A DNA stretch of 64,000 bases, taken from contig CAYJEE010000001.1 of assembly GCA_964369145.1 (NCBI GenBank), positions 2,052 to 66,051 on the forward strand, read 5' to 3'. Both the position numbers and the translations under genes were made by a program. The notes under the pieces are model-generated. The model made no database searches and was not told the origin of the DNA. It saw only the letters and a program-made list of their open reading frames with translations. How positions within the stretch are numbered: the first letter of the stretch is position 1; each line of letters begins with the position of its first letter. Source of the DNA: an uncultured Candidatus Saccharibacteria bacterium (GTDB lineage Bacteria; Patescibacteriota; Minisyncoccia; Phycocordibacterales; DATDWN01). Below are positions 44,660-61,452 of this stretch, in pieces.

Positions 44660-44733
44660 ACTCCGCCCTAGGGTACCCCTTTGGCGGATTACATACATAT
44701 CCACAAGGATAAATAAGAAAATTTGATATACTT

Positions 44734-45195: not shown

Positions 45196-45275
45196 GTGTT
45201 GACATGCTTATTCCTTATAGTAGCATTATAAATGGACGCTCTTCTGGGCGTACTATTAAGGTAGAAGGTGTAAAT

Positions 45276-45488: not shown

Positions 45489-45568
45489 ACCACTCTCTTG
45501 CGATAATACGGGCAAGTCAAAAACTTGTCCGTATTTACTTATTCTAAATACCTATCAAACATCATTTT

Positions 45569-46051
45569 ATGAAAAAATTTTTATACATTATACCTGGATG
45601 GGAAGAAACCTGTCGGCGTAAACCCTACAAACAATTGAAAATTGTTGCAGAAAAAAAAGGTTACAAAGTGGTATCTATAAAAGTCGATTGGAAGAAACCC
45701 TTATCTGGTCAGCTTTTTGTTGTAGAAAAAGAAGCAATTGTTTTTGGTTTTTCTCTTGGCGCTATACTAGGATGGCTTGTGGCACAAAAGTACCCTTGCA
45801 AACATTTAATTTTAGCATCTATGACTCCGCATAGCAGTTTCAAAGATCCTAAAATTAAAAAACTATTGATTGAAATAACTGGCGCTACGTTTGTCTTTGA
45901 TATCAATGCTAATCTTAAGAAAAATCATCGAGCAGAAAATCAAACTATAATTTACGGGGATCAGGAAGAAGAAAAAGCTGATATTTTAGTTACCAACACT
46001 CAACATGAACTTACCTCTAACTATATAAAGGTAATTGAGAAGCTTTTGTAA
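45569..46051 (+). CDS. small alpha/beta-hydrolase-fold protein
   Basis: GFSLG nucleophile elbow. Confidence 0.45.
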   Translation: MKKFLYIIPGWEETCRRKPYKQLKIVAEKKGYKVVSIKVDWKKPLSGQLFVVEKEAIVFGFSLGAILGWLVAQKYPCKHLILASMTPHSSFKDPKIKKLLIEITGATFVFDINANLKKNHRAENQTIIYGDQEEEKADILVTNTQHELTSNYIKVIEKLL

Positions 46052-46256
46052 GAATTATAGGTCAAATAACTTGGCAATTTTAAAGTATTTTTCAGAGGGT
46101 TTCTAGAAATGGCTCAATAAAGCCATTTATTTTAGTGTTTGTAAAGTCAATAGAATAACTGTGGATAACTATTGACAATTTTTTAAAAAGGGTTAGAGTT
46201 TACATCAGATAGGGACACAGATCCCTCAACATTTCTTTCATAAGGAGTGGAAAGCC

Positions 46257-47090
46257 ATGCGCCCCACCAATCGTTTTGCGATCGTTACTTTTTTGGTTGC
46301 TTTGATGTTCTGTGCAACCACGCCCGCAACCGCCCAGTTTTTGCCCGGTAACGAACCAGTTGGGGTTTACCCCCAACCCGGACCCTACCAGAACCCCGTC
46401 GCGGTGAGTCTCGTCGAAAATGGGGGCACTGTTGCCCTCAAGGTCCAACTGACCTACAGCCGTACCTGCATCGGGATATACTCCGCGTTCGTCCAGCTCG
46501 AAAGGGAGGTGTCCGGCAATTGGATTGGGCAAGGCGCTCAGGTACCGGTCCAGCTCGGACGTTTCGGCCGAGGTCCACTCGACAAAACACTCCGTACGGC
46601 GGCGGTCTTCACTCCGCCAGATGGAGGAGGGTTTGCGACCGGTGACTACAGGCTCAAGATCTCACCCTGGCTCTTTACGGGTGACGGGTGCCCGGTGTCG
46701 CAATACATAACCCACATCGAAACCCCTTTTCTCCACATCGGCGCCGGCTTCAACGGCAGGCTGTCGAGTGTGGGAAAAACCAGTATACCATCTCTCAACG
46801 ATGGTAAGCTGGAATTCCAGGCAATTTTGGTTAGTCGTACCAGACTCACCATTTTCCAAGAATTTGGTTCCGAAAAGGTAGTGGGGCTCTCCGAGGACTA
46901 CCCGGCAGGAAACACGAGCATCAAGACGAATCTCCATCCGGAATTTCGTCCTGGTCTGCCCATTAAGGTGCATATCCTTGATCTGGAGTCTGGCGACTCG
47001 ACCGTCGCCACGCTCTTCGAGCCAGCACCGAATGTTCGTTTTAATGCCATCCCTCGGAATACCGAGGGTGGCCAACCGGAGTGGCAATAG
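46257..47090 (+). CDS. secreted hypothetical protein, GC-richer, strong AAGGAG SD
   Basis: signal peptide ...LVALMFCATTPATAQ; TTGACA-N16-TAGAGT promoter-like and AAGGAG 8 nt upstream. Confidence 0.5.
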   Translation: MRPTNRFAIVTFLVALMFCATTPATAQFLPGNEPVGVYPQPGPYQNPVAVSLVENGGTVALKVQLTYSRTCIGIYSAFVQLEREVSGNWIGQGAQVPVQLGRFGRGPLDKTLRTAAVFTPPDGGGFATGDYRLKISPWLFTGDGCPVSQYITHIETPFLHIGAGFNGRLSSVGKTSIPSLNDGKLEFQAILVSRTRLTIFQEFGSEKVVGLSEDYPAGNTSIKTNLHPEFRPGLPIKVHILDLESGDSTVATLFEPAPNVRFNAIPRNTEGGQPEWQ

Positions 47091-47216
47091 CCACTCCACA
47101 ACAATACAGCCGCCATACCCCTCGAGGTCGTGGCGGCTTTTACCATATATAAATTCTTTATCCACACTTTTTGATTTTACACAGTATTGTTTTTTTCTCT
47201 GTGATATAATTTCTTC

Positions 47217-47723
47217 ATGGAAACAACTAAAAAGTCACTTTTAATTTTTCTCGGTTTACTAATTGTTGGAGGGAGTGCGTACGGTACATTTTATCTTTTA
47301 AAAAAATATATTAGTCGCACAGAGAATGAACCACTCGTAACCATGGATCAGCCAGCAAGCTCGACACCTGTTATTTCTGGTTTTGAACAGAATTTGCACA
47401 ACGAGGTTCCGTCAGTGTTACCAAAAGATGTATTGTTTGAAAAAAATGTGACCGTCGTGGAAAGCTTTACAGTGAAAAATGCTCCTGGTACACAATATAC
47501 ATATAGGTATATCTCAAAACTTTCTTTTGGGGAAAACTATTCTTATTTTTTTAAAACACTTCGTAATGCTGGCTGGGAAACAAAAACTGTCACTCGTACT
47601 GATAACGACTGGTTTATGTTTTTTGCTAAACCAAAGCAAGAGTTGAATATTTCATATTCTTTTAATAAAGAAACGAAGGTAGGTATTATAGATATTACAT
47701 TCTTACAGAAAAACAATGAATAA
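47217..47723 (+). CDS. membrane-anchored hypothetical protein
   Basis: N-terminal TM anchor. Confidence 0.4.
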   Translation: METTKKSLLIFLGLLIVGGSAYGTFYLLKKYISRTENEPLVTMDQPASSTPVISGFEQNLHNEVPSVLPKDVLFEKNVTVVESFTVKNAPGTQYTYRYISKLSFGENYSYFFKTLRNAGWETKTVTRTDNDWFMFFAKPKQELNISYSFNKETKVGIIDITFLQKNNE

Positions 47724-50478
47724 AAAATTATATGTACATTTTTTTGTTTTCAGTTTATTTTTGTTTTTTTTGATTGGATTTAAAACAGTCAGTGCTCAGG
47801 TTTGTGTCTCTGAGTGTACATCCGGTTTCGGAAGTTGTAGTTTTGTTTCAATGGGAAGTGGAGCTGCTTCTTGTGGTGGGGCAGAGTCATGTTCTACAGA
47901 TTATACATATACTAATTCAGGAGGTTCACTTTGTACTGTTACTAAATGTGCATGTGCAAATCAAGTTGTGCAAGGTACGTCATTTACAAGTTGTTCCGGA
48001 AGTAATGCGGGAAATGATTTGAGATGTCAGTTTGGTGGTGGATTTTGTCAGGCAAGTTTAGGTCCCGGTGTTAGATATTACACTGAATGTTTAAATAGTG
48101 GGGGAGGAGGTGGAAGTGGAGGTAGTGCATGTAATGGTAACGGTTTTTGCGATAACGGAGAATCGACCTTGTCTTGTCCCTCTGAATGTCCTCAACCAAA
48201 TTCTTACTTTGATCTCTCTGTAAGCCCCGGAACACGCTCTATTCTCAATGGCAATACTACAAATTTTACACTTACCCTCACACCTACAAACTCAATCACA
48301 ACAGGTCTAGGTGATGAAAGAGCAGTGGGGACATATGTACTACCTACACCAATACCAGGATGTCCTACTGGTGCGACATGTACATACTCAGGAGGCAATA
48401 CCATGACAGTAACTCAGGATACGACTGGCGGCGGTGTTGATTTTGCTGTACCAGCGACAAAAACTGTTCTCGTCGCTGCTTCAACTGTCATACCAAACAC
48501 ATACACACTTACTTTTTCTGCAGTTAACGCCTCAAATCAAACAAAAACAGCTGTCGCAAATCTTATCGTCAGTGCAGGAGTCAACAACGCATCTTGTTCG
48601 TCTATCACCCCGTCGAAAACTGCCGTAACTGCAGGTGAAGTGTTTAGTGCGACAGTGACGATGCAAAACAACGGAACAACTGTCTGGTCTCCAAACGATA
48701 TGCGAAACGACATCGCAGGAGTAAACAATTACCATGTCACAGTATCACCGTGGGCAGCGACATGGAATTATGGTCGTGATGATGTTTCTACAAATGTGGC
48801 TCCCGGAGGATCATTTACATTTACCGTACCGCTCACTGCGCCAGCGACGGCGGGTACATACAATCTCTCTACTCAGATGATCCAAGAAGGCGTGCAGTGG
48901 TTTGGTGCTTTATGTAACGCAGGAAATATTACCGTATCAGCTATCCCTGCTCCGACCGTGACTATGACCGCTCCTGCAGAAGTACAGCTCAACAATCCTT
49001 TTGTTGTTTCTTGGACATCAACAAATGCAGTGAGCGTTATACCAGGATCATCTATCGTTCCTCCTGCGGGATGTACGATGAGTCCTGCGGGCGCGCTCAC
49101 ACTCAATGATTCCCGAACAGTGACTTGTACTACTGTTGGTTCTAAGTATTTTCAAATCGCTGTAATGAATGGTGCAGGTACACAAGCAATAGATGGAAAG
49201 GCTGTAAATATCACCGCGCCCGCAGCACTGACACCTCCGACGAATCTTTCTTTGTCATGTAGTGGAGGTTTTGTAAATGCAAGTTGGAATTATACCAATG
49301 GATGGAGTACATACTATCTCCGAGCAAATCCCGCTGCAGATGATTGGACATGGCCTTCTGCTATTCAGGAAAACGTAGGTGTAGGTTCTTCATATAGTTT
49401 TCCTGCTGTTGTTGGACAGACCTATCATGTATGGGTGCACACGAGAAATCCTGCGGATGGTTCTTGGAGTGCAGCAGTAGATGGCAATGTGTTCTGTCCA
49501 AATACCGCAACGACAGGTACACTTACACCTGCAAATCCATCCTGTGTGATCGCTTCTGGAGCAAGTAGCTGTACAGTCAATCTTTCTTGGACAACTACCA
49601 ATCCTATTGGTACATCCGCAATTACTGCGGTTGGGATGACGAATGTAAACGGAAACTCAGGTACCAATGTAGCTTTCACAGTACCATATAGTAGTCGAAT
49701 ATTTTATCTCTACAACAACGCTATATTGCTCGCAACAAGTAATGCAACAGCAAGCTGTACAGGAGGAACTGCATGGAATGGTACAGCCTGTGCACCAACT
49801 GGAGGTGGTGGGGGAACATCATCTATTATCGGAAGAGTGTGTAAAGACGACAGTGGAAATGGTGTATGTGATGGTGGAGAAATTTATATACGAGATATTT
49901 CACTTGCGCCATGTACGATCACATCGTCTCCTCAAAGTGGCTTCTCTGTAAACTATTCAGGTCCAGAAAATGGAACAGCATTGATCAATGAATGTAGTCC
50001 AACCAGTGGGTTTCCTCGGTATTCAAAAGCATCTCTTGGTGCGGGCACATATAGCGTAAGTCTTATTCCGCCTGCTGGCTGGGTCACTACAGGATGTGTA
50101 CAAAGTGCAAGTAATGTATTTTCAAACTGTGCATCTGTCGGCACTGGATCAGTTACTGTTGCTGTGGGAGGTATTGAAAATGTGACGTTTGCTGTTAGAC
50201 CCCCTGTAGCTGTAAATTACTCTGTCACAGTCAACAAAACAGTAGGCGGGACAGTTACGAGTACTGACAATTTGATTAATTGTGGTGGTACGTGTTCTCG
50301 TCAGTATGCAGAAGGTTCTACGGTAACACTACAGGCAACACCTCTCTCTGTTCAGTGGAGATTTGCAGGATGGAGTGGTGCGTGTACAGGTACAGGTAAC
50401 TGCGTGCTCACAGTAGATGGCAACAAGTCTGTTACTGCCTCATTTAAACCTCGATCGCTCCTCTATCAAGAATTTTAA
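47716..50478 (+). CDS. giant secreted Cys/Thr/Gly-rich surface protein with C-terminal InlB-B-repeat-like domain
   Basis: signal peptide; Cys-rich N-module; C-terminus ...GGTVTSTD..INCGGTCSRQYAEGSTVTLQATP..WRFAGWSGACTGTGNCVLTV... Confidence 0.55.
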   Translation: MNKKLYVHFFVFSLFLFFLIGFKTVSAQVCVSECTSGFGSCSFVSMGSGAASCGGAESCSTDYTYTNSGGSLCTVTKCACANQVVQGTSFTSCSGSNAGNDLRCQFGGGFCQASLGPGVRYYTECLNSGGGGGSGGSACNGNGFCDNGESTLSCPSECPQPNSYFDLSVSPGTRSILNGNTTNFTLTLTPTNSITTGLGDERAVGTYVLPTPIPGCPTGATCTYSGGNTMTVTQDTTGGGVDFAVPATKTVLVAASTVIPNTYTLTFSAVNASNQTKTAVANLIVSAGVNNASCSSITPSKTAVTAGEVFSATVTMQNNGTTVWSPNDMRNDIAGVNNYHVTVSPWAATWNYGRDDVSTNVAPGGSFTFTVPLTAPATAGTYNLSTQMIQEGVQWFGALCNAGNITVSAIPAPTVTMTAPAEVQLNNPFVVSWTSTNAVSVIPGSSIVPPAGCTMSPAGALTLNDSRTVTCTTVGSKYFQIAVMNGAGTQAIDGKAVNITAPAALTPPTNLSLSCSGGFVNASWNYTNGWSTYYLRANPAADDWTWPSAIQENVGVGSSYSFPAVVGQTYHVWVHTRNPADGSWSAAVDGNVFCPNTATTGTLTPANPSCVIASGASSCTVNLSWTTTNPIGTSAITAVGMTNVNGNSGTNVAFTVPYSSRIFYLYNNAILLATSNATASCTGGTAWNGTACAPTGGGGGTSSIIGRVCKDDSGNGVCDGGEIYIRDISLAPCTITSSPQSGFSVNYSGPENGTALINECSPTSGFPRYSKASLGAGTYSVSLIPPAGWVTTGCVQSASNVFSNCASVGTGSVTVAVGGIENVTFAVRPPVAVNYSVTVNKTVGGTVTSTDNLINCGGTCSRQYAEGSTVTLQATPLSVQWRFAGWSGACTGTGNCVLTVDGNKSVTASFKPRSLLYQEF

Positions 50479-50691
50479 GGGGTACATGAGAGAAGAAAAA
50501 TAGTTTAAATTTTGAAATATACAGAGACGACCTAAAAAGGTCGTTTTTTGTTGCATATCACTTTTTTGGGGTAGGGGAGGTTTCATACCAATATGGCTTT
50601 ATAGAGCCATATTATTTGTGATTTACAAAAAAAGTACTTGACAGAAAGGGTAGGGGTGTGCTAGAGTATTAGGGAACTCAAACGTTATGTA

Positions 50692-51240
50692 TTGGGTTTT
50701 TTCTTTAGGGTTAAACCACCCTTTATTCCAGACACGTCAGAATTACTACTTAAAAAACATCTTATTTTAAACTTTACTGCTATTAGTTTGTTTATGGTCT
50801 TCTCGACTGTTGCTGGAGTTCATACTCCAGTCACCGTTACAGAAATTCCCCAGACAGAGATTCAGATAAAAAGTGAAAATCTCAAAAAAGAGAATATTGC
50901 AAAGAAAATGTCGACCGAAGAGTATGTGAGAAATCACTTCTCGGACACACCTATCCTTGCTGAAATCGCACGATGTGAGTCTCAGTTTCGTCAGTTTGAT
51001 AAAAAGACTGGTGAAGTATTGCGAGGTGTAGTAAATAACAAAGATGTGGGAGTGATGCAGGTCAACGAGTATTATCACTTGGAGACTGCAGAAAAAGCCA
51101 ACATCAACATCTATACACTCGAAGGAAACCTTGAATACGCCCGAAAGCTCTATAAGCAATTCGGTACCGATCCATGGAATTCATCGAAACCTTGTTGGGG
51201 TAAACATCTACAACAGCTCGCTGTTGAAGTGAAAGCCTAA
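50692..51240 (+). CDS. secreted protein with transglycosylase/Rpf-like lysozyme-fold domain
   Basis: ARCESQF...VGVMQVNEYYH...; signal/TM at N-terminus. Confidence 0.45.
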   Translation: MGFFFRVKPPFIPDTSELLLKKHLILNFTAISLFMVFSTVAGVHTPVTVTEIPQTEIQIKSENLKKENIAKKMSTEEYVRNHFSDTPILAEIARCESQFRQFDKKTGEVLRGVVNNKDVGVMQVNEYYHLETAEKANINIYTLEGNLEYARKLYKQFGTDPWNSSKPCWGKHLQQLAVEVKA

Positions 51241-51343
51241 TACAAACTTAAAACAAAAGCTCCTGTAATGGGAGTTTTTGTTTTGTATAAAAATATCCCC
51301 ACCAAAGGATTTTGCTCGGGTGGGGAAATACGAAGAGGGATAT

Positions 51344-51823
51344 TCATCCTTGTTTCTTTAGGAGTTCTCGAATTACGTGATGGAGCTGGGTAAACCCATC
51401 AAGTCCCTTTTGCACAATACGAACCATAGGATCCTTCAGGATCTCATTGGGAAGTTCTTCTCCCAGCTCGCCGTTTCTGTGGGTGTGGATGATGATGGGG
51501 ATATAGCACCCATCTTCACGAAGTTTATTGATCAAGTGTACAGATGTTCCGTTCATATAGAGAGGGTCGCATTGGTTCAAGGATGGGATCTGCGCGACAA
51601 TTCTTTCATATGCATCACCACACTCAGGATCATCCAGTGAAGGGTCCGTAAGAGGAAAATCGTATTCCATTACCAAGACCCTTAGATCCGGTTTGGCCGG
51701 TAGGAAATCTGCAAGTGTGTAATACACGTCAACAGATGCATCAAAGGCTTTTCTTAGAGCCTCTGCAATCTGTAATGCTTCACCAGGAAGAAAGTTGTCA
51801 ATAACCGCAATTTTTATGTTCAT
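51344..51823 (-). CDS. hypothetical protein with flavodoxin/receiver-like fold (no phospho-Asp signature)
   Basis: MNIKIAVIDN start with GGAG SD; alternating beta-alpha pattern. Confidence 0.4.
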   Translation of the reverse strand: MNIKIAVIDNFLPGEALQIAEALRKAFDASVDVYYTLADFLPAKPDLRVLVMEYDFPLTDPSLDDPECGDAYERIVAQIPSLNQCDPLYMNGTSVHLINKLREDGCYIPIIIHTHRNGELGEELPNEILKDPMVRIVQKGLDGFTQLHHVIRELLKKQG

Positions 51824-51860
51824 GGTTGCTCCTAAGTTATTTATAGCATTTAGGAGACCA

Positions 51861-52010
51861 AAGTAAAGCATGTCGCACTACAAGAGTACTAATGTATTAC
51901 TAAGGCCCCTATGCAGGGGACCTAAGTAATACATGTCGCACCACAAGAGTACTAGTTAGTATCTAACGAGGGGATGAACCCCTCGAAGATACTAATGTCG
52001 CACAATATAT
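51861..52010. repeat. about 63-bp tandem degenerate repeat (2.5 units), each unit = AAGTAA..CATGTCGCAC.ACAAGAGTACTA motif + GC hairpin (CCCCT..AGGGG or GAGGGG..CCCCTC)
   Basis: units start at 51861, 51924 and 51986. Confidence 0.5.
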
Positions 52011-52175
52011 CTTTTGTACATGCTCGTACGAGGAGGCTTGGGCTTTTAATTGAATCATTTAAAATTTTAGAATCCCAAATTGATATATTTATATAAAAAA
52101 ATTCCCACTCTCCCCTTGAGGTAGGATTCATTTTTGTTTCTCTTTTTATATACCTTTTTTACTTTTATCTCTTAT

Positions 52176-52225
52176 TTTACTTCTCTTTAAAAATCCATAT
52201 TCCCAGTAGGGAAGTCCCCTGCCCT
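52176..52225 (+). promoter_or_regulatory. 48-bp element tttacttct(c)tttaaaaatcc(a)tattcccagtagggaagtcccctgccct, copy A
   Basis: near-identical to 55631-55678 (copy B). Confidence 0.6.
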
Positions 52226-52268
52226 TTTTCTCCATTCTTCTTATTAATTTGATATAATATATGTCTAT

Positions 52269-55200
52269 ATGATACGTAGAGTTATATTAAAATTATTTTT
52301 GGTAACAAGTACTTTTATGTTTTGCTGCGGGATTACATTTCCGTACGTTGGTGTACTAGAAGCTGCAGATGCGCTGATTATTTCTAATATTGGAGTAGAT
52401 AGTGTTTCCTACACATCTGTGCGTATTCAATGGAATACAGATATACCCGCTTCATTGTCTCGAGTAAAATATGACACTGTAGCAACAGAAGAGCCATTTA
52501 CAAACGGTACAGCTAACAAACTTAGTAATACTAGTACAATTCATGGATATACTCTTGGTGGTCTTGCGCCAAATACACTTTACAATTTTAAAGTGTGTTC
52601 AACGGTAAATTCAATCGAAACATGTAGCCCCACTCAGAATTTCACTACAACAGCTGCACCTTCAAATCGTTTTTCTCCGCCAACACTTCCAAACTCTGCT
52701 ACGTTGTCTTCTATGCCTACGATAAACGGTACTACACACACTGTAGCAGCTGATTGTAGTGATTTGCAGATAAAAATAAATACTGCCGCAGCAACGTCCG
52801 GCTCATTGAATCATCAAATTCTTATTCCTCCTACTGCTCTTTGTAAAGGTAATTATGAGCTTCCGTCTCGAGCTGGTACGGGTTGGATTGTAGTCCGTTC
52901 TGCGGCAAGTGATGCCCAGCTTCCTCCGGAAGGTACCCGTGTAGGCCTTAGTTATGCGCCTGTTATGCCCACTATTTACGGGCTAGTTGAAGGTGAGACA
53001 CATTTACAATCAACTATTTTTACAGAGAATCCAACTTCTAAATGGAGATTTGTTGGTGTTCAGATTAAAGGAAGTGCAGGGCGACGTGGATCAGCGGTTC
53101 ATCTTGGACGCGGAGTATCAACAGATATCATTTTTGATAGAGATATTTTTGATATATCAGGGGATACTACATATACCGTAAGAAATGAAGGTGTCCGCAA
53201 TATTGTTGCACATTCATATATCCATCATGTAAAAACAGGCTCTCTCGCAGTGGCAATTGGTCTGACGAACTCACAATATGCTCTGATTGATAACAACTAT
53301 ATCAATGCTCCTGGTATTAGCATTTTTGGTGAAGAAGGAGGAGGAAATCTACCGCCAGCTTCGGATATTACAATCACTCGAAACTTTTTTGAATGGGATA
53401 GTGTGAACAAAACAAATACAATAGTAAGACATCAATTAGAATTTAAATCAGGGGAAAGAATTCTCATTAGGGGTAATATCTTTAAAGACTCATGGACTGG
53501 CGGAATTACTGGTGGCATGGCACAAGTAATACTTTTCTTTCCAAGAGCAGGTTGGAGTGGTTCCATACGAAATTCATTAAATTATATTGCTGACGTGACT
53601 ATAAAAGATAATGTTCTTATTAATACTGCTGGCGGAATTGGCTTAGTTGGATCTGAATCGGCTGGAGTAGCTTCTGACGTAGCTTCAACTAAACGTTTTC
53701 TCATTAAGAACAATATTTTTTATAAGTTAAATGGTTATAATGGCGCTCCCGGTAATGCAGTAGCAGGATCTCCTTTTTATATTGCAGGAGCAATTGAAGA
53801 TGTAGTGATTGATCACAATACGATATATGATCCAAGAGGACTGTTTCCTGCTACTATTTGGTTTCTTGAAAACGTGGGTGCTGGTTTAAAATTAACCAAT
53901 AACATTATTACACAAAATTATACGAGTAGTATTGGTGGCTTTTACAAAAATACAGATTATCCAGGTCAGCTTCCAGTAGTAACGAACGGTAGCGCGTTTT
54001 CAACAATTGGCGGATCAGTGCGTGCAGCACCAAATGTAGACCCTACTCTTTTGGTACAAGGTAATCTTATTCTTCCTGGGGTTACTGACACTAGCTCAGA
54101 ATCAGCGTACTCAAATCCTTCTTCTTTCTATTCTCTTGCGAGCTGTACTACCTACTGGTCTGGCTTTACAAATAATGCTTGTGCGGGTAATATTTCTACG
54201 CTTACAGCAAACTCAGTAACTGCATCAGTTGGTTTTGCTAATACGTCTACATTCTCTGGTTTATATTTAGCATCTGGTCCATACAAAAATAGTGCTTCGG
54301 ATGGAGCAGATCCTGGAGTTGATATAAATAATTTAAATGCTCAAGTATCAAATACTATGACCGGCGGTTATGTTCCCCCTCCCCCCTCCGACACCACTCC
54401 CCCTGTCTTTTCTAATATTTCAGCCGGCACAATCACCACTGACTCAGTGATGGTCACCTGGACAACAAACGAATCCTCTGACACTCAGGTAGAATACGGA
54501 CTCACTGCAAGCTATGGTTCGTCTTCAACATTAAATGCAACACTCGGATCATCTCACAGCGTACCCCTTACATCACTGACTCCAAACACCCTATATCATT
54601 ATCGTGTAAAATCTAGAGACGGTGCAGGCAACCAAGCGATTTCCGCAGATCAAACCTTCACAACACGTGCTGTCGTAGCGACAGTGGTAGATCCGACATT
54701 AAATGTAGTCACAAAAGATTTCGGTAGTCTTCCGGTTGGTTCATCTACTCAACCATTCATGTTTTCAATCAACAATCCAAACAGTTCTTTTGTTGGAGTC
54801 AGTGCTGTGGCAGTAACGGGTGATTTTTCAATCACTACAAACTACTGTACTTCCGGTATGCAACCTTCTACTCACTGTGACATATATGTTGCTTTTAACC
54901 CCTCTACAAGTGGAACACGAACAGGTACTCTCATCATCACTCTTACAGGTGCTTCTACAAACACACTCTCTGTCACACTTGCCGGTACAGGAACAGCAGT
55001 CAACACACCAGAAGACCCTCCAATCCTTCCTCCACCTCCAGTTATCACACCCCCTCCTGTAGTCACTCCTCCTATCATTCCTCCTCCTCAAAAGATACCT
55101 CCACCAGGAATCATCATCACCAAAACTCTTGCTCGAGGAATGACTTCTCCCGAGATTATCATTCTTCAAACCCATCTCAAACAAATTGGTTTGTTTGAGA

Positions 55201-55601
55201 ACTCAATACAGACAAGCAACTACTTTGGTCCGGCAACAGAAAGAGCGGTTAAACTCTATCAAGCATCTAAAGGAATCGAGCAGACTGGTATCGTCGGCCC
55301 ACTAACACGAGGAAGCTTAGCTGGATCATCGACTCCACCACAAACTGTTACTTCTCAAGTACTTCCTACAACTGTATACATCGGTGTGAAGCATTCTGAT
55401 GTAGTGAAGTTACAAAATATTCTCAAGAGACTTGGTTTCTTCCCACAGAATGTTGATTCTTCAGGATACTTTGGCCCTACCACAAAAAAAGCGGTGCAGG
55501 CATTCCAGAGACAATACACTATTGCCTCAAGTGGTACTGAAAATACCACTGGGTACGGTATGGTGGGAAAGAAAACGTGGGCTAAGCTTTTAGGTTTGTA
55601 A
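52269..55601 (+). CDS. cell-wall-anchored surface enzyme: Fn3-like N-terminus, right-handed beta-helix (pectate-lyase-like) domain, Fn3, Pro-rich linker, two PG_binding_1 domains
   Basis: parallel beta-helix repeats; Fn3 with ...TPNTLYHYRVKSRD...; C-terminal PG-binding repeats. Confidence 0.65.
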   Translation: MIRRVILKLFLVTSTFMFCCGITFPYVGVLEAADALIISNIGVDSVSYTSVRIQWNTDIPASLSRVKYDTVATEEPFTNGTANKLSNTSTIHGYTLGGLAPNTLYNFKVCSTVNSIETCSPTQNFTTTAAPSNRFSPPTLPNSATLSSMPTINGTTHTVAADCSDLQIKINTAAATSGSLNHQILIPPTALCKGNYELPSRAGTGWIVVRSAASDAQLPPEGTRVGLSYAPVMPTIYGLVEGETHLQSTIFTENPTSKWRFVGVQIKGSAGRRGSAVHLGRGVSTDIIFDRDIFDISGDTTYTVRNEGVRNIVAHSYIHHVKTGSLAVAIGLTNSQYALIDNNYINAPGISIFGEEGGGNLPPASDITITRNFFEWDSVNKTNTIVRHQLEFKSGERILIRGNIFKDSWTGGITGGMAQVILFFPRAGWSGSIRNSLNYIADVTIKDNVLINTAGGIGLVGSESAGVASDVASTKRFLIKNNIFYKLNGYNGAPGNAVAGSPFYIAGAIEDVVIDHNTIYDPRGLFPATIWFLENVGAGLKLTNNIITQNYTSSIGGFYKNTDYPGQLPVVTNGSAFSTIGGSVRAAPNVDPTLLVQGNLILPGVTDTSSESAYSNPSSFYSLASCTTYWSGFTNNACAGNISTLTANSVTASVGFANTSTFSGLYLASGPYKNSASDGADPGVDINNLNAQVSNTMTGGYVPPPPSDTTPPVFSNISAGTITTDSVMVTWTTNESSDTQVEYGLTASYGSSSTLNATLGSSHSVPLTSLTPNTLYHYRVKSRDGAGNQAISADQTFTTRAVVATVVDPTLNVVTKDFGSLPVGSSTQPFMFSINNPNSSFVGVSAVAVTGDFSITTNYCTSGMQPSTHCDIYVAFNPSTSGTRTGTLIITLTGASTNTLSVTLAGTGTAVNTPEDPPILPPPPVITPPPVVTPPIIPPPQKIPPPGIIITKTLARGMTSPEIIILQTHLKQIGLFENSIQTSNYFGPATERAVKLYQASKGIEQTGIVGPLTRGSLAGSSTPPQTVTSQVLPTTVYIGVKHSDVVKLQNILKRLGFFPQNVDSSGYFGPTTKKAVQAFQRQYTIASSGTENTTGYGMVGKKTWAKLLGL
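55099..55601 (+). repeat. left copy of a ~503-bp inverted duplication (C-terminal 164 codons + stop of the surface protein; encoded aa 100% identical to the right copy)
   Basis: encoded aa identical to the gene 58255-60561 C-terminus; antisense translations 55355-55549 and 58217-58501 are also identical (64 aa); nt identity compared directly only in part. Confidence 0.85.
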
Positions 55602-55630
55602 TTCTGGATTATTTGTGACCTTAGATCATC

Positions 55631-55678
55631 TTTACTTCTTTAAAAATCCCTATTCCCAGTAGGGAAGTCCCCTGCCCT
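55631..55678 (+). promoter_or_regulatory. 48-bp element copy B, followed directly by TATAAT, upstream of the ECF sigma gene
   Basis: ...cccctgccctataatag. Confidence 0.6.
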
Positions 55679-55739
55679 ATAATAGATTGTTCGCTATAAA
55701 TTATTAAAAGGTACTATTGCAATATTCTATATTTGATGT

Positions 55740-56330
55740 ATGGTTTGTACCAGAGGAACCATTATGGAACCTGATATTTTGACTGTTTTACCAATAGTCG
55801 ACAAGTTGGTACGAGTGCTTACACGGGATTATCCACCGTGGGTGCGTGAGGGTTATTTCGACGATATGGTGCAGGTGGCCAGAATACGGATACTTGCACG
55901 TATTGGTACATATGATCCATCGAAGGCGCCGTTGAATCATTTCTTGACTCTGCACACACGTTGGGCGATTCGCGAGTACCTTAGAAGTAAGGAGTTCATT
56001 TTTGATCGATTCGTGCCGATTAGAGGCGGAGAATTCGATGGCATCGATTCCGAAGGAGTTGATGTTGTGGATACCAATGCGTGTACCGAACTGCGCCTAG
56101 TTGGACATAGCAGGATTGCGGAGGTGCTTCAGCACCTACAAGATTCTGTAAGTGAAAAACAATGGAAAGCAGTTAAGTTGTACTACTTTGAAGAAAAAAC
56201 TCATGCTGAAATTGCAGGCATTCTCGGATTGTCTGTTGGATATGTTAGAGAAATTATTTCTCGTTCCCTCAATATCTTTCGCGAAAAGCTTTTTTCGTTA
56301 AGAATAGATTCAGCACGTCATGTGCTGTAA
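55740..56330 (+). CDS. ECF-type sigma-70 family factor (regions 2 and 4)
   Basis: region 2 YFDDMVQVARIRILARIGTYDPSKAPLNHFL..; region 4 EKTHAEIAGILGLSVGYVREIISRSL. Confidence 0.7.
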   Translation: MVCTRGTIMEPDILTVLPIVDKLVRVLTRDYPPWVREGYFDDMVQVARIRILARIGTYDPSKAPLNHFLTLHTRWAIREYLRSKEFIFDRFVPIRGGEFDGIDSEGVDVVDTNACTELRLVGHSRIAEVLQHLQDSVSEKQWKAVKLYYFEEKTHAEIAGILGLSVGYVREIISRSLNIFREKLFSLRIDSARHVL

Positions 56331-56359
56331 ATGAGATAGAGAACAACAGGGGGTGTGAT

Positions 56360-56959
56360 GTGGTGATTTTTGTCGTAAAAGGTCAGGAAGTAAATGACTT
56401 CCAGATTACGGGAATTTGTCATGTGCTCACTGAAGCGAAGCACAGAGTGATACGTGGCACAATGCAAATGCTCATTAGTGATTGCGGGAGGTCAAGAGTT
56501 GAGTGTGTCATCATTGTCAATGACCGCAGAACTGAACAAACTTTTCAGTTGATTTTGCAGGCGGTATCGACCTCCTGCAGTTCAGTTATTGTGCTCACAA
56601 CCAAGATACAGAAAATGGAAGCTGCGAGTCTGGATGTGCTTCCAAAGAGAGTGTCTGTTCTAAAGATGGATACACCGGCTGAGAAGCTCTTGCTCGTACT
56701 GCAACTCTGCAACACACATCAGGTGATTCATCCTGATGTTGTGAAGCAAGTCACTGTTCCTGAACAGGTCGGGTTTACACCAAGAGAGCGAGAAATTTTT
56801 TCACTTCTCGTAGATCCATCTTATACACAAAGAGATATCGCTGGGTTACTTCACATCTCAGAAAGCACCATGAATACGCATGCAACCAGCATAAACAAAA
56901 AATTACGGATACCGGGTGGAAGACTGCATCTTATACAGAGGTACAGCACCAAGCCGTAG
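56360..56959 (+). CDS. LuxR/GerE-family HTH regulator with degenerate receiver-like N-domain
   Basis: C-terminal TPREREIFSLLVDPSYTQRDIAGLLHISESTMNTHATSINKKL; N-domain lacks the DD/D/K phospho-relay residues. Confidence 0.6.
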   Translation: MVIFVVKGQEVNDFQITGICHVLTEAKHRVIRGTMQMLISDCGRSRVECVIIVNDRRTEQTFQLILQAVSTSCSSVIVLTTKIQKMEAASLDVLPKRVSVLKMDTPAEKLLLVLQLCNTHQVIHPDVVKQVTVPEQVGFTPREREIFSLLVDPSYTQRDIAGLLHISESTMNTHATSINKKLRIPGGRLHLIQRYSTKP

Positions 56960-57008
56960 CAACCAAGTTCTGTTTCAAAAAAGGCCCTCGATCGTGAGGG
57001 TCTTTCCT

Positions 57009-58253
57009 TTACACATTTTTCCCTGCAACATACCCAGTCGTCCAACAGAGCTGCAATGAAAAGCCTCCAGAAGGTCTGTCTATATGGATCATGTCTCCCG
57101 TAAGGAAAAGATTATCGATTTTTGTAGATTGCATGGTCTTTGTATCAATCTCACGAATATCCACTCCGCCATCAGCAACCACCGCTTTGTCGAATCCAAG
57201 GAGGCCCAAAATTGACACAGGAAGAGCTTTGAGAAGCCTAGTGATATCTTTACGCATCTCTTTGGTCACACTATGCGTCTTTATTTCAGGATCGATATGT
57301 GGCAAGAGTGAGAGGATTACACGACCAGTTCCATGAGGTGCGATGTCACTAAACACATTTTTAAATGCTTTATTTTTATGTACATCAAATATCTTGATAA
57401 TATACTTTTCAAGCGTCCCCTGATCTTTGTCTGGATAGGTGTCGATATGAAGTGTAACAAGACCCTTGTGTAAAAGATCCGCTACTTCTTTTGCAGTATT
57501 GAGTATAAGGGGGCCAGAGAGTCCAAAATGAGTACACAAAACTTTCCCTTTTTTAGTAAATGCTTTCGTACCATCTACAAAAAAGGAAAGTTTCACTGGA
57601 TGCTCGAGAGAACCGAGAGAAATTCCCGCGAGTTCTTTGACCCACGCTTCTTCGACTATAATTGGCACGATAGTCGGTGTCGGTTCGTGTATAGTGTGTC
57701 CGAGGTTGCCCAGCCAGCCGAATCCGTCACCAGTTGATCCTGTCTCGGGATGAGAGAGTCCACCAGTAGCTATCACCACAGACTCCCCTTCATACACACC
57801 TTTTTTTGTAACAACCTTTGAAATTTTTTTATCGGTAATTTCCAGTTTAACTACAGGGTTATCAGTCATCACAGTCACATTGTGTTCTTTTAAAAATTTC
57901 ACCAACACATCACATACATCAGAGGCTTTTTCTGATTTTGGAAATGCACGTTTTCGAGCTTCTACAAAAAGGGGGAGTCCCCTACCCTCAAAAAATTCAA
58001 AGGTTTCATTCACACCAAATACAGAAAATGGAGAATATAAAAAATCTTTTCCTGATTTGTAATGTGAGAGAAGTGCATGAATATCGTATTCTGCATTTGT
58101 GATGTTGCAACGTCCACCACCGGTGATACGCAACTTTTCTCCGAGTTTTTTATTTTTTTCAAGCAAAAGCACGCGTTTTCCACGCGCCCCCGCGACTCCG
58201 GCAGCCATCATCCCAGATGCTCCCCCACCGATTACGATTACGTCGTAGTTCAT
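57009..58253 (-). CDS. HI0933/BaiN-family FAD-dependent flavoprotein
   Basis: MNYDVIVIGGGASGMMAAG...GGGRCNITN. Confidence 0.8.
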   Translation of the reverse strand: MNYDVIVIGGGASGMMAAGVAGARGKRVLLLEKNKKLGEKLRITGGGRCNITNAEYDIHALLSHYKSGKDFLYSPFSVFGVNETFEFFEGRGLPLFVEARKRAFPKSEKASDVCDVLVKFLKEHNVTVMTDNPVVKLEITDKKISKVVTKKGVYEGESVVIATGGLSHPETGSTGDGFGWLGNLGHTIHEPTPTIVPIIVEEAWVKELAGISLGSLEHPVKLSFFVDGTKAFTKKGKVLCTHFGLSGPLILNTAKEVADLLHKGLVTLHIDTYPDKDQGTLEKYIIKIFDVHKNKAFKNVFSDIAPHGTGRVILSLLPHIDPEIKTHSVTKEMRKDITRLLKALPVSILGLLGFDKAVVADGGVDIREIDTKTMQSTKIDNLFLTGDMIHIDRPSGGFSLQLCWTTGYVAGKNV

Positions 58254-58254
58254 A

Positions 58255-58757
58255 TTACAAACCTAAAAGTTTAGCCCACGTTTTCTTTCCCACCATACCG
58301 TACCCAGTGGTATTTTCAGTACCACTTGAGGCAATAGTGTATTGTCTCTGGAATGCCTGCACCGCTTTTTTTGTGGTAGGGCCAAAGTATCCTGAAGAAT
58401 CAACATTCTGTGGGAAGAAACCAAGTCTCTTGAGAATATTTTGTAACTTCACTACATCAGAATGCTTCACACCGATGTATACAGTTGTAGGAAGTACTTG
58501 AGAAGTAACAGTTTGTGGTGGAGTCGATGATCCAGCTAAGCTTCCTCGTGTTAGTGGGCCGACGATACCAGTCTGCTCGATTCCTTTAGATGCTTGATAG
58601 AGTTTAACCGCTCTTTCTGTTGCCGGACCAAAGTAGTTGCTTGTCTGTATTGAGTTCTCAAACAAACCAATTTGTTTGAGATGGGTTTGAAGAATGATAA
58701 TCTCGGGAGAAGTCATTCCTCGAGCAAGAGTTTTGGTGATGATGATTCCTGGTGGAG
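58255..58757 (-). repeat. right copy of the ~503-bp inverted duplication
   Basis: see left copy. Confidence 0.85.
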
Positions 58758-60561
58758 TCGGTACAACCGGAGAGATTATTGTCGTCGTTGCTAAAGGTGC
58801 TGGAGGTACAACAACTGGAGGAACAATGATGGGAAGTGGGTCAATAGGAGGTATAATAGATCCCCCGCCACCGCCTCCCCCTCCTCCACCACCTCCACCG
58901 CCGCTCACAACTGTAGCAAGTGTAGTAAATGTTGTATTAGGTGAAGTGATGAGGTTACCTGATGCATCTCTACTCTTCACACGATAGTGATACACCGTAT
59001 TTGGCGAGAGATTGATGAGAAATGCTGTATGAGAAGTATTGAGTGACTCATTGAGAGTACTTACACTTCCGTATTGATCTGTTATACCGTATTCTACCTG
59101 TGAGCTTGCAGATTCACTGGTTGTCCATGAAACTGTGACGGATGTTTGAGTGATACCTGAACTCGCTAAGGATGAAATTATTGGAGGGGTACTATCGGGA
59201 ACTGTTCTCCATTCTACATACTTTTGACTCCATCTATAGTTTTGAGAATACTGTTTTCCACCAGTACCTACTCCACCCAAATATGCTCCAGCAACTCCTG
59301 AATTAAAAATTTTATCTCCTCGGATACGATAAACAACATCTCCAGTTTGTCGATAGACCCAACCATACAGAGGAGCAATAAGTAGGTTAAGATCGGGTGC
59401 GGGAGCACCTTGTATATAAGTGGTTGTATCGACATAACGAAAAGCTTGGCCGTTCTCATCCCAATGAGTGAGCCATAATTCGTCGGCAGCCAACTTTAGT
59501 AGCGGAGGAATTCTAGGATCCGCTGTTAAATCCCAATACTCAATCAGTGCTTCAGCAGAAAGTGCAACCATAAATGGTTGTACATAATTAGCATTTTTAC
59601 TTACAAACCATTGGTCAAAATGACCAATTACTATCTCTGCAATATCTTGAAGAGTAGGTTTCCTAGCTAGACCCACACGCTCTGCTGCAATATTAACTTC
59701 TAATGCATAAGCCAATTCTCTCGAATTTTCCCAACTTACAGCAAAACCAACATTTTGAAGACTTGCATACGCACTATTTTCTCGCATGAGGTTAAGAGCA
59801 TCTTTTGACAACGTGTCACCAGTCCGTTCAAAATTCATAGCCAAACCTTGAGGAAAATACCGCCAACCGGGAATTCCTCCATTTGCATTTATAACGTATG
59901 GTCTGTATAAACTTTGTATTAAAAGTGCGCAATCATCCCAACTTGGATCATGTGTGTAATCTGCTATTTGATAAAATACTCTGATGCCATCGTAATACCA
60001 CGCAGCACCCTCCCATATAGAAGTCACCTCAACAGGATCACAATGCATTAAACCAAAATGAGTCATGTTATTTTCCCATGTAGAAAGGCTTGAGAGAGAT
60101 GTGTTAGATGGAAATACATCTTTAACTATTTGTGCTGGAATAGGGTTGACAGTAATATCATAGACAACACTCCGGACAACTCCGCTTTGACTGGTATATG
60201 TGATGGTAATTGGGTATGTTCCCGTGGGAGTATTTGTCGTAGTTATTATCTTTAATGAAGTTATACTACTAATATTATATAAATATGTTCCACAACAATA
60301 CTTAACCATATCCGGGTAAGTCGCTGTCATTCCTGTCGCAAGTCCACTCACTGAAGGTGTGACTGGTTCATCAACCCCACTTATAAGAGATGATGCTAAA
60401 ACAATAGCTATTGAATTACCTTTAACCACACTATGTGGACCAAAAGCTGTTAGTGTAAATTGTGGAGGTTCGTTTATTTGTGCGTGGATAGTATTACTCA
60501 GTATAAAAAACAATACTATTCCGACAAACATCAAAATTGTAAATAGCGAGTACTTTCTCAT
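58255..60561 (-). CDS. cell-wall-anchored surface enzyme 2: signal peptide, alpha/alpha-toroid-like (polysaccharide lyase/GH-like) domain, Fn3, poly-Gly/Pro linker, two PG_binding_1 domains
   Basis: distinct N-terminal catalytic region; Fn3 ...SPNTVYHYRVKSRD...; GGGGGGGGGGGGGG linker; C-terminal 164 aa identical to the 52269-55601 product. Confidence 0.65.
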   Translation of the reverse strand: MRKYSLFTILMFVGIVLFFILSNTIHAQINEPPQFTLTAFGPHSVVKGNSIAIVLASSLISGVDEPVTPSVSGLATGMTATYPDMVKYCCGTYLYNISSITSLKIITTTNTPTGTYPITITYTSQSGVVRSVVYDITVNPIPAQIVKDVFPSNTSLSSLSTWENNMTHFGLMHCDPVEVTSIWEGAAWYYDGIRVFYQIADYTHDPSWDDCALLIQSLYRPYVINANGGIPGWRYFPQGLAMNFERTGDTLSKDALNLMRENSAYASLQNVGFAVSWENSRELAYALEVNIAAERVGLARKPTLQDIAEIVIGHFDQWFVSKNANYVQPFMVALSAEALIEYWDLTADPRIPPLLKLAADELWLTHWDENGQAFRYVDTTTYIQGAPAPDLNLLIAPLYGWVYRQTGDVVYRIRGDKIFNSGVAGAYLGGVGTGGKQYSQNYRWSQKYVEWRTVPDSTPPIISSLASSGITQTSVTVSWTTSESASSQVEYGITDQYGSVSTLNESLNTSHTAFLINLSPNTVYHYRVKSRDASGNLITSPNTTFTTLATVVSGGGGGGGGGGGGGGSIIPPIDPLPIIVPPVVVPPAPLATTTIISPVVPTPPGIIITKTLARGMTSPEIIILQTHLKQIGLFENSIQTSNYFGPATERAVKLYQASKGIEQTGIVGPLTRGSLAGSSTPPQTVTSQVLPTTVYIGVKHSDVVKLQNILKRLGFFPQNVDSSGYFGPTTKKAVQAFQRQYTIASSGTENTTGYGMVGKKTWAKLLGL

Positions 60562-60662
60562 TGTGTTGCTTTATAGTTTTATGGCGAAGTAAGGGCTGTA
60601 TAATTACTTTTCACTAACCTACTTAAGTTTAGCATTTATTTTGATGCAATAGAACGCAAACC

Positions 60663-60713
60663 ACCATCATCCCAGACGCTCCCCCACCGATTACGATTAC
60701 GTCGTAGTTCATA
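60663..60713 (-). pseudogene. 51-bp duplicate of the flavoprotein gene 5' end (MNYDVIVIGGGASGMM..), one mismatch, no continuing ORF
   Basis: ccatcatcccaga(c/t)gctcccccaccgattacgattacgtcgtagttcat matches 58203-58253. Confidence 0.6.
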
Positions 60714-60807
60714 AGTGTAAACTATACCATACATACTTATATAAATATTTAGACAATATGGGGTATTTGTACACCTATCGTATTTTTTAAAATAATGTGG
60801 TATACTA

Positions 60808-61452
60808 TTGTCCATGACATATACCAAAAAGATCGCTTATCTCTGTATGTTCTTAGCCCCGTTTCTGGCTGTGGCCCAAGGACAAGCCTTTTCCACATCA
60901 CTTGGGTACGGAAGTACAGAAAAAAATGAAGTTATCAAGCTTCAGCAATTTCTCGTATCTGAAGGATTACTCGGAACAAACCCAACAGGCAATTACCTTT
61001 CTCTGACCGCAAACGCTGTAAAAGCATTCCAAAAAAGTCAGAACATTCAAGCGACTGGTTATTTCGGCCCACTGACCCGCGCAGCAGCGAACCAAAAGTT
61101 TACTGAGCGCAACACTCCCCAAGCATCTGTCTCTGTATCATCTGTGAGCTCAAACAAATCTCTCGCCGCAGCAGTCTTTTTGTCAAACTCTAAAAAAGTA
61201 GAATGGAGTACAGCCAACTACCCATCAAACGTTGGTGTCAATATCAACCTTCTCAAAAAAGTAAATACTTCTCCGGTAACCTACGCATTTGTACGTCAGA
61301 TTGCAAAAGACACACCAAATGACGGACAAGAAGTATGGACACCCACATCAGCCGAGAAGAATCTCGATCTCTATGTTGAAGTGACCTGTTCGACTACATA
61401 TACATTTACAAAAGGCTGTCAGATCTCTCGAGACACTATAAAAGTTCAGTAA
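60808..61452 (+). CDS. secreted PG_binding_1-domain protein
   Basis: signal peptide; ...VIKLQQFLVSEGLL...GYFGPLTRAA. Confidence 0.5.
   Translation: MSMTYTKKIAYLCMFLAPFLAVAQGQAFSTSLGYGSTEKNEVIKLQQFLVSEGLLGTNPTGNYLSLTANAVKAFQKSQNIQATGYFGPLTRAAANQKFTERNTPQASVSVSSVSSNKSLAAAVFLSNSKKVEWSTANYPSNVGVNINLLKKVNTSPVTYAFVRQIAKDTPNDGQEVWTPTSAEKNLDLYVEVTCSTTYTFTKGCQISRDTIKVQ

Follow-up and report, generated by a model that had tools for sequence, protein, structure and literature searches.

Two convergent genes from an uncultured, ultrasmall Candidatus Saccharibacteria bacterium were found to end in nearly the same 504 nucleotides (nt). They lie in a 64,000-nt stretch of contig CAYJEE010000001.1 (assembly GCA_964369145.1), hereafter called the window, to which all coordinates refer unless another sequence is named. 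Gene A (52269-55601, plus strand) and gene B (58255-60561, minus strand) would encode secreted sugar-degrading enzymes that, judging from their modelled folds, appear unrelated to each other, and the block that they have in common specifies a C-terminal module which, by its match to PF01471, would bind peptidoglycan (PG). We consider it probable that this arrangement arose through recent modular shuffling, in which a wall anchor from a beta-helix family was grafted onto a toroid enzyme, both genes being lineage-specific cassettes that flank a flavoprotein gene. A first-pass annotation of the window had offered modular shuffling of an anchoring cassette as one explanation; our comparisons support that idea and add a polarity, with gene B as the predicted chimera and both genes as recent insertions absent from the nearest relatives.

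The shared 3' block

A repeat search returned a single long inverted repeat in the window, with arms of 504 nt each at 55099-55602 (arm L, plus strand) and 58254-58757 (arm R, minus strand), separated by a spacer of 2651 nt (~2.65 kb). Since genes A and B are convergent, the block common to their 3' ends lies as an inverted repeat. By blastn and base-by-base comparison, the identity of the arms was 503/504 rather than complete. The sole mismatch, a G at 55586 against an A (read in the same sense) at the partner position 58270, is located 16 nt from the inner end of the repeat and is synonymous (Lys, AAG/AAA), and the uninterrupted identical stretch inside the arms measures 487 nt. The inverted duplication described in the first-pass annotation is real (504 nt, as compared to the ~503 bp noted). 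Its claim of identical tails was confirmed for the common peptide, which has 166 amino acids (aa) plus the stop codon instead of 164, and for the DNA apart from one differing nucleotide; alignment of the two copies thus gave one synonymous difference, not scattered ones. Chance is not a plausible source of a 504-nt match within 64 kb.

The edges of the repeat are sharp. On the outer side, 9/9 positions preceding 55099 mismatch, though both flanks encode Pro-rich linkers; on the inner side, identity stops 1 nt past the TAA stop codon, with unrelated sequence beyond. The earlier placement of the start in the Pro-rich linker was correct, while the end, put exactly at the stop codon, fell one nucleotide short. 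Arm L, the 3' end of gene A, is made up of the linker tail PPGIIITK, two PG_binding_1 stretches, the TAA and one extra nucleotide; arm R is the 3' end of gene B. The match to PG_binding_1 (PF01471) scored 92.5 bits for the gene A tail and 93.7 bits for the gene B tail, against a cut-off of 23, with two stretches per protein, and the nearest sequence match of the module in the PDB was 4lpq, the PG-binding domain of an ErfK/YbiS-family protein. The GC content of the gene cassettes was 0.41, versus 0.417 for the window.

Ahead of the module the two proteins differ. The 1110-aa product of gene A is arranged as signal peptide, Fn3, parallel beta-helix core, Fn3, Ig-like domain, Pro-rich linker and two PG_binding_1 stretches; the 768-aa product of gene B as signal peptide, Ig-like domain, (alpha/alpha)6 toroid core, Fn3, a run of 14 glycines with a Pro-rich linker, and two PG_binding_1 stretches. 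Both N-termini are signal-peptide-like. The glycine run is encoded by 14 consecutive, mixed GGN codons (58861-58902, residues 554-567 of gene B) directly upstream of the Pro-rich linker and reads as poly-Pro on the opposite strand (open reading frame, ORF, 58694-58987), so that low-complexity DNA stands beside the graft junction.

AlphaFold2 (AF2) models were built on family alignments, and folds were compared by Foldseek. The gene A core (residues 136-705) was modelled as a right-handed parallel beta-helix with a predicted local distance difference test score (pLDDT) of 85.7; its Foldseek matches were GH136 lacto-N-biosidases, PL6 lyases, tailspikes and the AlgE epimerase, and there was a weak profile match to GH110. 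Gene A thus appears to encode a beta-helix enzyme, possibly a lyase or a hydrolase. The gene B core (residues 136-455, pLDDT 92.8) was modelled as an (alpha/alpha)6 toroid, with query template-modelling scores (TMq) of 0.65 to 3wiw, a GH88 unsaturated glucuronyl hydrolase and the best match, and of 0.59 to 4xuv; it also matched GH105, GH76 and AGE epimerases, the latter two at a similar level. No Pfam or PDB-profile match was found for this core, which the GH88 and GH105 family hidden Markov models (HMMs) did not recognise, and PF07470/PF07944 were present in just a few distant gene B homologues. Sequence and profile searches against the PDB reached no solved catalytic domain for either core.

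The difference in catalytic folds, beta-helix versus toroid, had already been called in the first-pass annotation and is right at the fold level. Equally accurate was its view of the Fn3 modules of the two proteins as only diverged homologues: they have 55% protein identity and gave no nt-level alignment by blastn. We rejected these modules as the trace of an older and larger transfer, given that 55% is no higher than the value against Fn3 modules of unrelated proteins.

Because the window derives from a metagenome-assembled genome, and because the 487-nt identical stretch is longer than typical k-mer sizes, so that the join depends on read pairs, the two arms might in principle never have stood in one genome, either through a mis-joined repeat or through the threading of two near-isogenic strains. 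As an independent check, we used the Logan k = 31 assemblies of runs ERR4405439, ERR4405441 and ERR4408280, whose contigs were 100% identical to the window. One contig (L105, ERR4405439) corresponds to 43103-55128 and stops 30 nt inside arm L. Another (L081, 2693 nt, recorded in 3 samples) corresponds to 55556-58248; it begins exactly 30 nt upstream of the single-nucleotide polymorphism (SNP) of the inverted repeat and ends 30 nt after the SNP of a direct repeat, D4, described below. Two further contigs (L107 from ERR4405439 and L108 from ERR4408280) both begin at 60684, 30 nt inside the D4b copy, and these break coordinates had been predicted before the contigs were retrieved. In all, four contig ends in three runs fell at the predicted bases, every repeat-related end being 30 nt into a repeat or from a SNP.

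Since the Logan assemblies break as predicted, both module copies, each with its own SNP allele and flank, are present in the raw data of several runs. Moreover, L105 passes through the D5a repeat into gene A unbranched, no haplotype with an empty D5 site was seen in ERR4405439, and the middle segment was 100% identical in the Logan assembly, with no bubbles. An assembly artefact or strain chimera is scarcely credible when the arm SNP is linked to different flanks, the branch points stand at the expected bases in three runs and the same middle contig recurs across samples. Assembly collapse, which the first-pass annotation had kept as an alternative, is very unlikely and is effectively refuted by the arm SNP and the breaks at 30 nt.

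Two single-gene cassettes beside a flavoprotein gene

Each enzyme gene is enclosed by a pair of ~50-nt direct repeats. The gene A cassette (52226-55630) has on its left D5a (52176-52225), which joins the ancestral left flank and holds the core TAGGGAAGTCCCCT, and on its right D5b (55631-55678), which joins ~40 nt of ancestral right flank; the two copies differ by one mismatch and a 2-nt indel. Between D5b and the nucleotide that follows the gene A stop lie 28 unique nt (55603-55630, plus strand, here called x), which form the 3' flank of the cassette. On the minus strand, which is that of the flavoprotein gene, D5b is terminator-like, with TCCCTACTGGGAATAGGGA followed by TTTTT.

The gene B cassette (58255-60663) was similarly found between D4a (58205-58254, minus strand) and D4b (60664-60713, minus strand). 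D4a covers 49 nt from the start of the flavoprotein ORF together with the nucleotide just before them; it continues into the body of that gene and meets arm R directly, overlapping it by 1 nt. D4b is a duplicate of this 5' end (49/50) upstream of gene B, joined to the ancestral promoter and pg212 side. As D4 is the 5' end of the flavoprotein ORF, its duplication leaves the flavoprotein gene intact. The duplication also accounts for a remnant ORF of 27 codons (60630-60713, minus strand) between the ancestral flavoprotein promoter and gene B, which comprises the flavoprotein N-terminus MNYDVIVIGGGASGMM and 11 novel residues. This remnant could serve as a leader ORF for a gene B-flavoprotein transcript. 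Neither the direct repeats around the two genes nor the remnant had been noted in the first-pass annotation.

Taken together, the repeats show each enzyme gene as a single-gene insertion with a target duplication of ~50 nt. Relatives were collected by a flavoprotein scan of species-representative genomes together with Logan and NCBI look-ups, and five proved informative; their flavoproteins are 96% (L082), 89% (L001/L002), 80% (L101) and 79% (L099) identical in aa to that of the window. L082, whose flanks show 85-93% nt identity to the window on both sides, has neither gene A nor gene B, nor the sigma factor and LuxR-type genes that stand between them in the window, and it has one D5 and one D4. 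In that genome, 33 nt separate the flavoprotein stop from the single D5, and the flavoprotein start abuts a promoter region common with a divergent small PG_binding_1 gene. L001/L002 also have none of the four genes; tspO is directly beside their flavoprotein gene, and a Fic/Doc gene lies between the flavoprotein gene and D5. The absence of the other four genes from L082 and from L001/L002 marks the flavoprotein gene as the core gene and the remainder as lineage-specific. The sigma and LuxR genes, absent from all relatives examined, are a third insertion, which is free of repeats.

The D5 duplication postdates the divergence from L082, because D5a and D5b are 98% identical to each other and D5b is 89.6% identical to its counterpart in L082. 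The core TAGGGAAGTCCCCT occurs twice in the window only (52207-52220 and 55660-55673) and once in each of the five relatives (11820-11833 in L001/L002, 11308-11321 in L082, 12396-12409 in L099, 13369-13382 in L101), always on the downstream side of the flavoprotein gene and pointing the same way. All 14/14 positions are conserved across genomes whose flavoproteins are just 75-96% identical. The D5 core could be a terminator or binding site under strong constraint, and may at the same time flag an insertion hot spot.

The cargo on the flavoprotein side of D5 varies by genome, being nothing, a Fic/Doc gene, sigma-LuxR or gene A. The Fic/Doc-like gene of L001 (11382-11789 in that sequence, and likewise in L002) encodes 135 aa with the motif HPFTDGNKRTA; the window has sigma-LuxR in that slot.

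Three proposals concerning these elements were tried and dropped. An att-like core common to D4 and D5 (CCAT..TCCCAG, 10/12 matching) is expected by chance, and the two repeats have no significant similarity. D5 as a common promoter of the extracytoplasmic function (ECF) type for gene A and the sigma gene does not fit with the relatives, where the lone copy drives nothing, nor with its terminator-like character on the flavoprotein strand. A resemblance of x (28-34 nt after the gene A stop) to a module/flavoprotein junction was not significant against shuffled sequences.

Origin of the anchor and rival histories

To find which family owns the anchor, the 167-aa module was searched exhaustively with phmmer against 1.84 billion representative proteins; an earlier word-index search had given 3 matches, and the exhaustive search was used instead. 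No third near-identical copy was found among these proteins. The nearest full-length carriers were P0171 (64-68%), P0175 (57-63%) and P0242 (49%), with the module at the extreme C-terminus in all of them, and all (3/3) have a beta-helix of the gene A type. P0171 aligns with gene A without interruption through the Ig-like domain, the linker and the module; with gene B, these carriers have only the module in common, plus a generic Fn3 in P0175 and P0242. Conversely, the module was found in 0/119 homologues of the gene B catalytic core, and PF01471 in 0 of the top 120 matches. With gene A-like proteins as its nearest carriers, and with no homologue of gene B among its carriers, the anchor appears native to the beta-helix family. 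The identification of gene B as the chimera is robust, and the process is, as far as these comparisons go, one of domain accretion rather than homogenisation of two old tails.

Module scans of JGI metagenome contigs gave no close relative, and scans of viral contigs gave none, so that there was no sign of the module as a widespread mobile or phage-borne unit. Ten predicted viral contigs from IMG/VR (L089-L098) do encode relatives of the gene B core (32-44%), none of them with the anchor module. It may be that the gene B-core family extends to depolymerase-like enzymes carried by phages, or that those contigs are host DNA wrongly classified as viral.

Gene conversion, the other origin suggested in the first-pass annotation, would start from two long-standing paralogous PG-binding tails, one of them recently overwritten. 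Conversion is known to act on inverted repeats carried by a single chromosome; in addition, both linkers are Pro-rich, BLASTP similarity runs ~12 aa upstream of the identical block, and the lone SNP is near one repeat edge. However, there is no residual diverged homology at the boundaries, given the mismatches on the left, the unrelated sequence on the right and flanks that cannot be aligned at the nt level, and a PG_binding_1 tail is missing from all 119 gene B-family members. The right boundary, furthermore, matches the edge of D4a and of the gene B cassette with single-base precision, which points to an event that formed the junction rather than to a tract ending within homology. We therefore do not favour conversion as the origin and regard it as quite improbable, although conversion after the copying may maintain the identity of the arms.

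For recent modular shuffling, the following course can be proposed. The gene A cassette would have been installed at D5, a conserved hairpin element that follows the flavoprotein gene, after the split from the nearest sequenced relative; the gene B cassette would have been installed at the first 50 nt of the flavoprotein ORF, in the same lineage and also after that split. Illegitimate or template-switch recombination would have joined the module to the gene B head within the linker, which is Pro-rich and, as DNA, CCN-rich, either during installation beside the flavoprotein gene or earlier, in a donor genome. Alternatively, a donor segment made of head, module and flavoprotein 5' end could have been integrated, with the flavoprotein gene as the homologous anchor. 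On the inner side, the copied module and the gene B cassette end at the same base (with the 1-nt overlap, a T after TAA), and the junctions are sharp, with no flanking homology. The same anchor would hold both enzymes on peptidoglycan, and such co-localisation may be the selective benefit, the inverted repeat being a by-product of this history. Once present, the arms could be kept identical by gene conversion, or a reciprocal exchange between them could flip the 2.65-kb segment. Single-event histories (a triplication, or a staggered-break inversion of the form a-d*-S*-a*-d) formally give the repeat pattern, and were set aside because both need extra steps.

Several points weigh against the modular shuffling that we propose. 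For the head of gene A the best homologue reaches only 47% identity, and for that of gene B only 53%. The linkage of each head to its downstream flank across the 487 identical nt is provided by the submitted assembly only; k = 31 contigs cannot bridge that stretch, and so the orientation of the middle segment is without independent confirmation. The age contrast is statistically weak, with 1/504 differences in the inverted repeat and two substitutions plus one indel in ~100 nt of direct repeats. To our knowledge, no enzyme system yields two ~50-nt target duplications at unrelated sequences, and we know of neither proposed joining mechanism giving regular duplications of ~50 nt. Finally, two outgroups, L099 and L101, carry a gene for a beta-helix with the module 9 nt upstream of the flavoprotein gene and co-directional with it.

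The last point deserves closer consideration, as the outgroup loci are orthologous to that of the window (ExoX 80%, cupin 85%, pg214 64%, flavoprotein ~80%, o182 86%). The gene order in L101 is ExoX, cupin, a small PG-binding gene on the other strand, the slot gene and the flavoprotein gene, the slot being the one that gene B occupies in the window. The junction between the beta-helix+module gene and the flavoprotein gene is conserved between L099 and L101, and because both outgroups show it, a head with the module followed by the flavoprotein gene is an old arrangement at this locus; L099, L101 and the window each have a head of their own before the module, three different heads in all. In the more distant module carriers P0242, P0162 and P0278, the gene does not adjoin a flavoprotein gene.

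These outgroups, together with the single nucleotide that separates the module stop from the flavoprotein ATG in the window, are what one would expect had arm R been an old resident anchor, the gene B head having displaced a beta-helix head and gene A with arm L being a relocated or duplicated copy. Such a replacement implies that gene A, module and flavoprotein were the ancestral linkage and that inversion across the repeat is past or ongoing. Yet the slot is empty in the nearest relatives, L082 and L001/L002, and D4b is still joined to the ancestral promoter, from which it follows that, until the arrival of gene B, the promoter stood right next to the flavoprotein gene, as it does in L082. 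Nor can inversion alone have moved the gene A head, which is outside the invertible segment, and the 3' flank x of gene A bears no relic of a flavoprotein junction. Overall, we find head replacement rather unlikely.

The inverted repeat also raises the question of whether the arms form a programmed or regularly used switch that flips the 2.65-kb segment and re-pairs genes A and B with sigma-LuxR or the flavoprotein gene. In the present order, gene A is followed by D5b, sigma and LuxR, and gene B by the flavoprotein gene, whose ATG comes 1 nt past the gene B stop and which has no room for a promoter of its own; either orientation puts one unit co-directionally behind each enzyme gene, and the flipped isomer (gene A, module, flavoprotein) would recreate the outgroup order. 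Against such a switch, no transposase, recombinase or integrase domain was found among the ORFs scanned at ~41-64 kb. The repeats, moreover, are 3' coding ends rather than promoter-proximal, so that both proteins would be unchanged, and since none of the relatives has the copy that gave rise to the repeat, there is no evidence of conservation. RecA-mediated inversion of the middle segment, raised in the first-pass annotation, is possible from its structure; a regular switch seems to us a slight chance. If inversion occurs, it would alter neither protein, and would place the flavoprotein gene behind gene A and sigma-LuxR behind gene B.

RecA-type inversions between segments of surface-protein genes have been described (PMC3666127; PMC1950947). 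In Lactobacillus acidophilus, slpA and slpB are opposite genes whose N-terminal parts vary and whose C-terminal wall-binding region is conserved, and a segment of the locus can invert, according to the review PMC3666127, which cites Boot et al. 1996. The geometry is like that of the window, where oppositely oriented genes share a long segment (504 nt, 99.8%). In the slp system, as outlined in that review, inversion moves a silent gene behind the single active promoter and switches the protein made; in our case the segment includes neither 5' region, it is the 3' ends that are repeated, and only the downstream partners would be exchanged. The sap inversions of Campylobacter fetus (Dworkin and Blaser 1997 and Tu et al. 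2001, as cited in PMC1950947) likewise involve, in the account given there, recombination between conserved segments of oppositely oriented surface-protein gene homologues. There, 5' conserved repeats in a multigene family flank a promoter-bearing invertible element, unlike the two unrelated genes, 3' repeats and lack of promoter logic seen here. With 3' ends for repeats and with the promoters beyond the segment, inversion in the window cannot switch the protein made. Site-specific invertible elements (Hin, Gin, Fim, shufflon) differ as well, our arms being 504 nt of coding sequence as compared to sites of ~10-40 bp, with no recombinase found among the scanned ORFs.

As for the way in which the cassettes arrived, no known system matches in every respect. 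Homology-facilitated illegitimate recombination, a concept that we take from its citation in PMC8116780, could place a foreign single gene beside a homologous anchor, transposase-free and with sharp junctions (0-3 nt of microhomology), but its classical result is an insertion plus deletion and not a ~50-nt target duplication. Integrase islets with att repeats resemble the cassettes in that ~50-nt direct repeats flank each gene and one repeat rebuilds the 5' end of the target gene; unlike islets, the two repeat pairs are unrelated, each island is one gene and the scanned ORFs include no integrase. Transposable elements differ too, the cassettes being single enzyme genes with unrelated ends, duplications of 48-50 nt in place of 2-14 bp, and no transposase in the same scan.

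In contrast, recombination of wall-binding modules (choline-binding, LysM, SH3b, PG_binding_1) with different catalytic heads is well known in bacterial and phage envelope enzymes. The module in the window conforms to this classical modular evolution, being a self-contained C-terminal wall-binding unit behind a flexible linker, with unrelated heads and the junction in the linker. What is unusual is that the transfer is seen at 99.8% nt identity within one locus, with an inferable polarity, that none of the 119 members of the recipient family has the module and that the copies form an inverted repeat. A more far-reaching interpretation, in which the flavoprotein gene is a recombination hot spot served by an undescribed mechanism with ~50-nt target duplication, the locus combines a constant tail with swappable heads and the inverted repeat is used as a switch, strikes us as decidedly doubtful.

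Neighbouring genes, other elements and significance

The genes of the middle segment largely agree with the first-pass annotation, which had listed an ECF sigma gene, a LuxR-type regulator and an HI0933 flavoprotein. The sigma factor (55764-56330, plus strand) belongs to the sigma-70/ECF superfamily; its probable start at 55764 gives 188 aa in the Logan gene call, the mechanical ORF running from 55740. It matched TIGR02937 with 55.7 bits against a cut-off of 42.9 and contains Pfam regions 2 and 4 only, as is characteristic of the ECF type; no ECF subgroup or anti-sigma partner was identified for it. The LuxR/GerE-type helix-turn-helix (HTH) protein (56360-56959, plus strand, 199 aa) has a GerE HTH of 32.7 bits, and the N-terminal ~130 aa belong to no detectable family. 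The pseudo-receiver that had been assigned to it found no support in any HMM, with no Response_reg signal even at E<=10. Apparently, this gene is 114 aa long in the source NCBI record (P0161), as opposed to 199 aa by the Logan call and the ORF.

A bidirectional terminator-like hairpin (56985-57012) lies between the LuxR and flavoprotein genes. The flavoprotein gene itself (57009-58253, minus strand) is of the HI0933/aminoacetone-oxidase family and is the conserved core gene of the locus. On the far side of gene B, the stretch 60714-61452 (plus strand) comprises the ancestral promoter region, which is divergent (60714-60813), and the gene for a small PG_binding_1 protein, pg212/pg214, with homologues in the same place in L082 and L101.

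Some further elements of the window were noted. A second variable block, at 45195-48579 in the window as compared to 14929-19379 in L082, lies between flanks of 85-93% identity; it contains ORFs 45569-46051, 46257-47090 and 47217-47723 in the window, which have no Pfam match, and a gene of 796 aa in L082. The motif ATGTCGCAC occurs three times on the plus strand (51870, 51933 and 51995) with ~62-nt spacing, where 0.24 occurrences would be expected by chance. This array lies between a 159-aa gene and D5a/gene A, and the motif is also found in the homologous intergenic region of L001 (~12036); the sites are probably a set of operators bound by some regulator.

A 157-nt tandem duplication (5645-5801 and 5802-5958, 99% identical) is followed by a third partial copy from ~5965, the whole spanning 5645-5983. 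Each unit holds the first ~24 nt of the tRNA-Ala gene (CCAGATGAGCTAAGGGCCC), which is located at 5595-5668 on the minus strand. The tandem resembles D4 in that the 5' end of a gene and its upstream region are duplicated upstream of the intact gene. In addition, a ~125-nt intergenic element is present in two copies (12535-12663 and 32976-33105) that are 86-93% identical and 20.4 kb apart. It forms a long imperfect hairpin with 45 predicted pairs, including two adjacent compensatory pairs between the copies, gave no Rfam match and may be an element like a miniature inverted-repeat transposable element (MITE) or a repetitive extragenic palindrome (REP), or a small RNA. These direct repeats of ~125-130 nt were rejected as the ends of an island, the interval between them being housekeeping (LeuRS, AlaRS, YchF, S24/LexA-like).

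Irrespective of the copying mechanism, the process at this locus is a known one, of which the window offers a clean instance in a poorly studied phylum, and current concepts are unchanged by it. Its value is that of a snapshot of ongoing domain shuffling, in which a wall anchor has been copied to an unrelated enzyme with a divergence of one nucleotide, the donor family is identifiable, relatives keep the pre-insertion sites and every junction can be read. Reads could, furthermore, test two concrete hypotheses, one on the ~50-nt target duplications and one on the possibly invertible segment.

With regard to function, degradation of a uronate-containing polymer might proceed in two successive steps at the same wall, one carried out by the beta-helix enzyme (possibly a lyase) and the other by the GH88/105-like toroid enzyme, both on one type of anchor. 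The reduced genomes of the Candidate Phyla Radiation (CPR)/Patescibacteria rely on surface enzymes for an epibiotic lifestyle. The locus suggests that their surface repertoire can be quickly rebuilt around a stable core gene, apparently without classical mobile-element genes.

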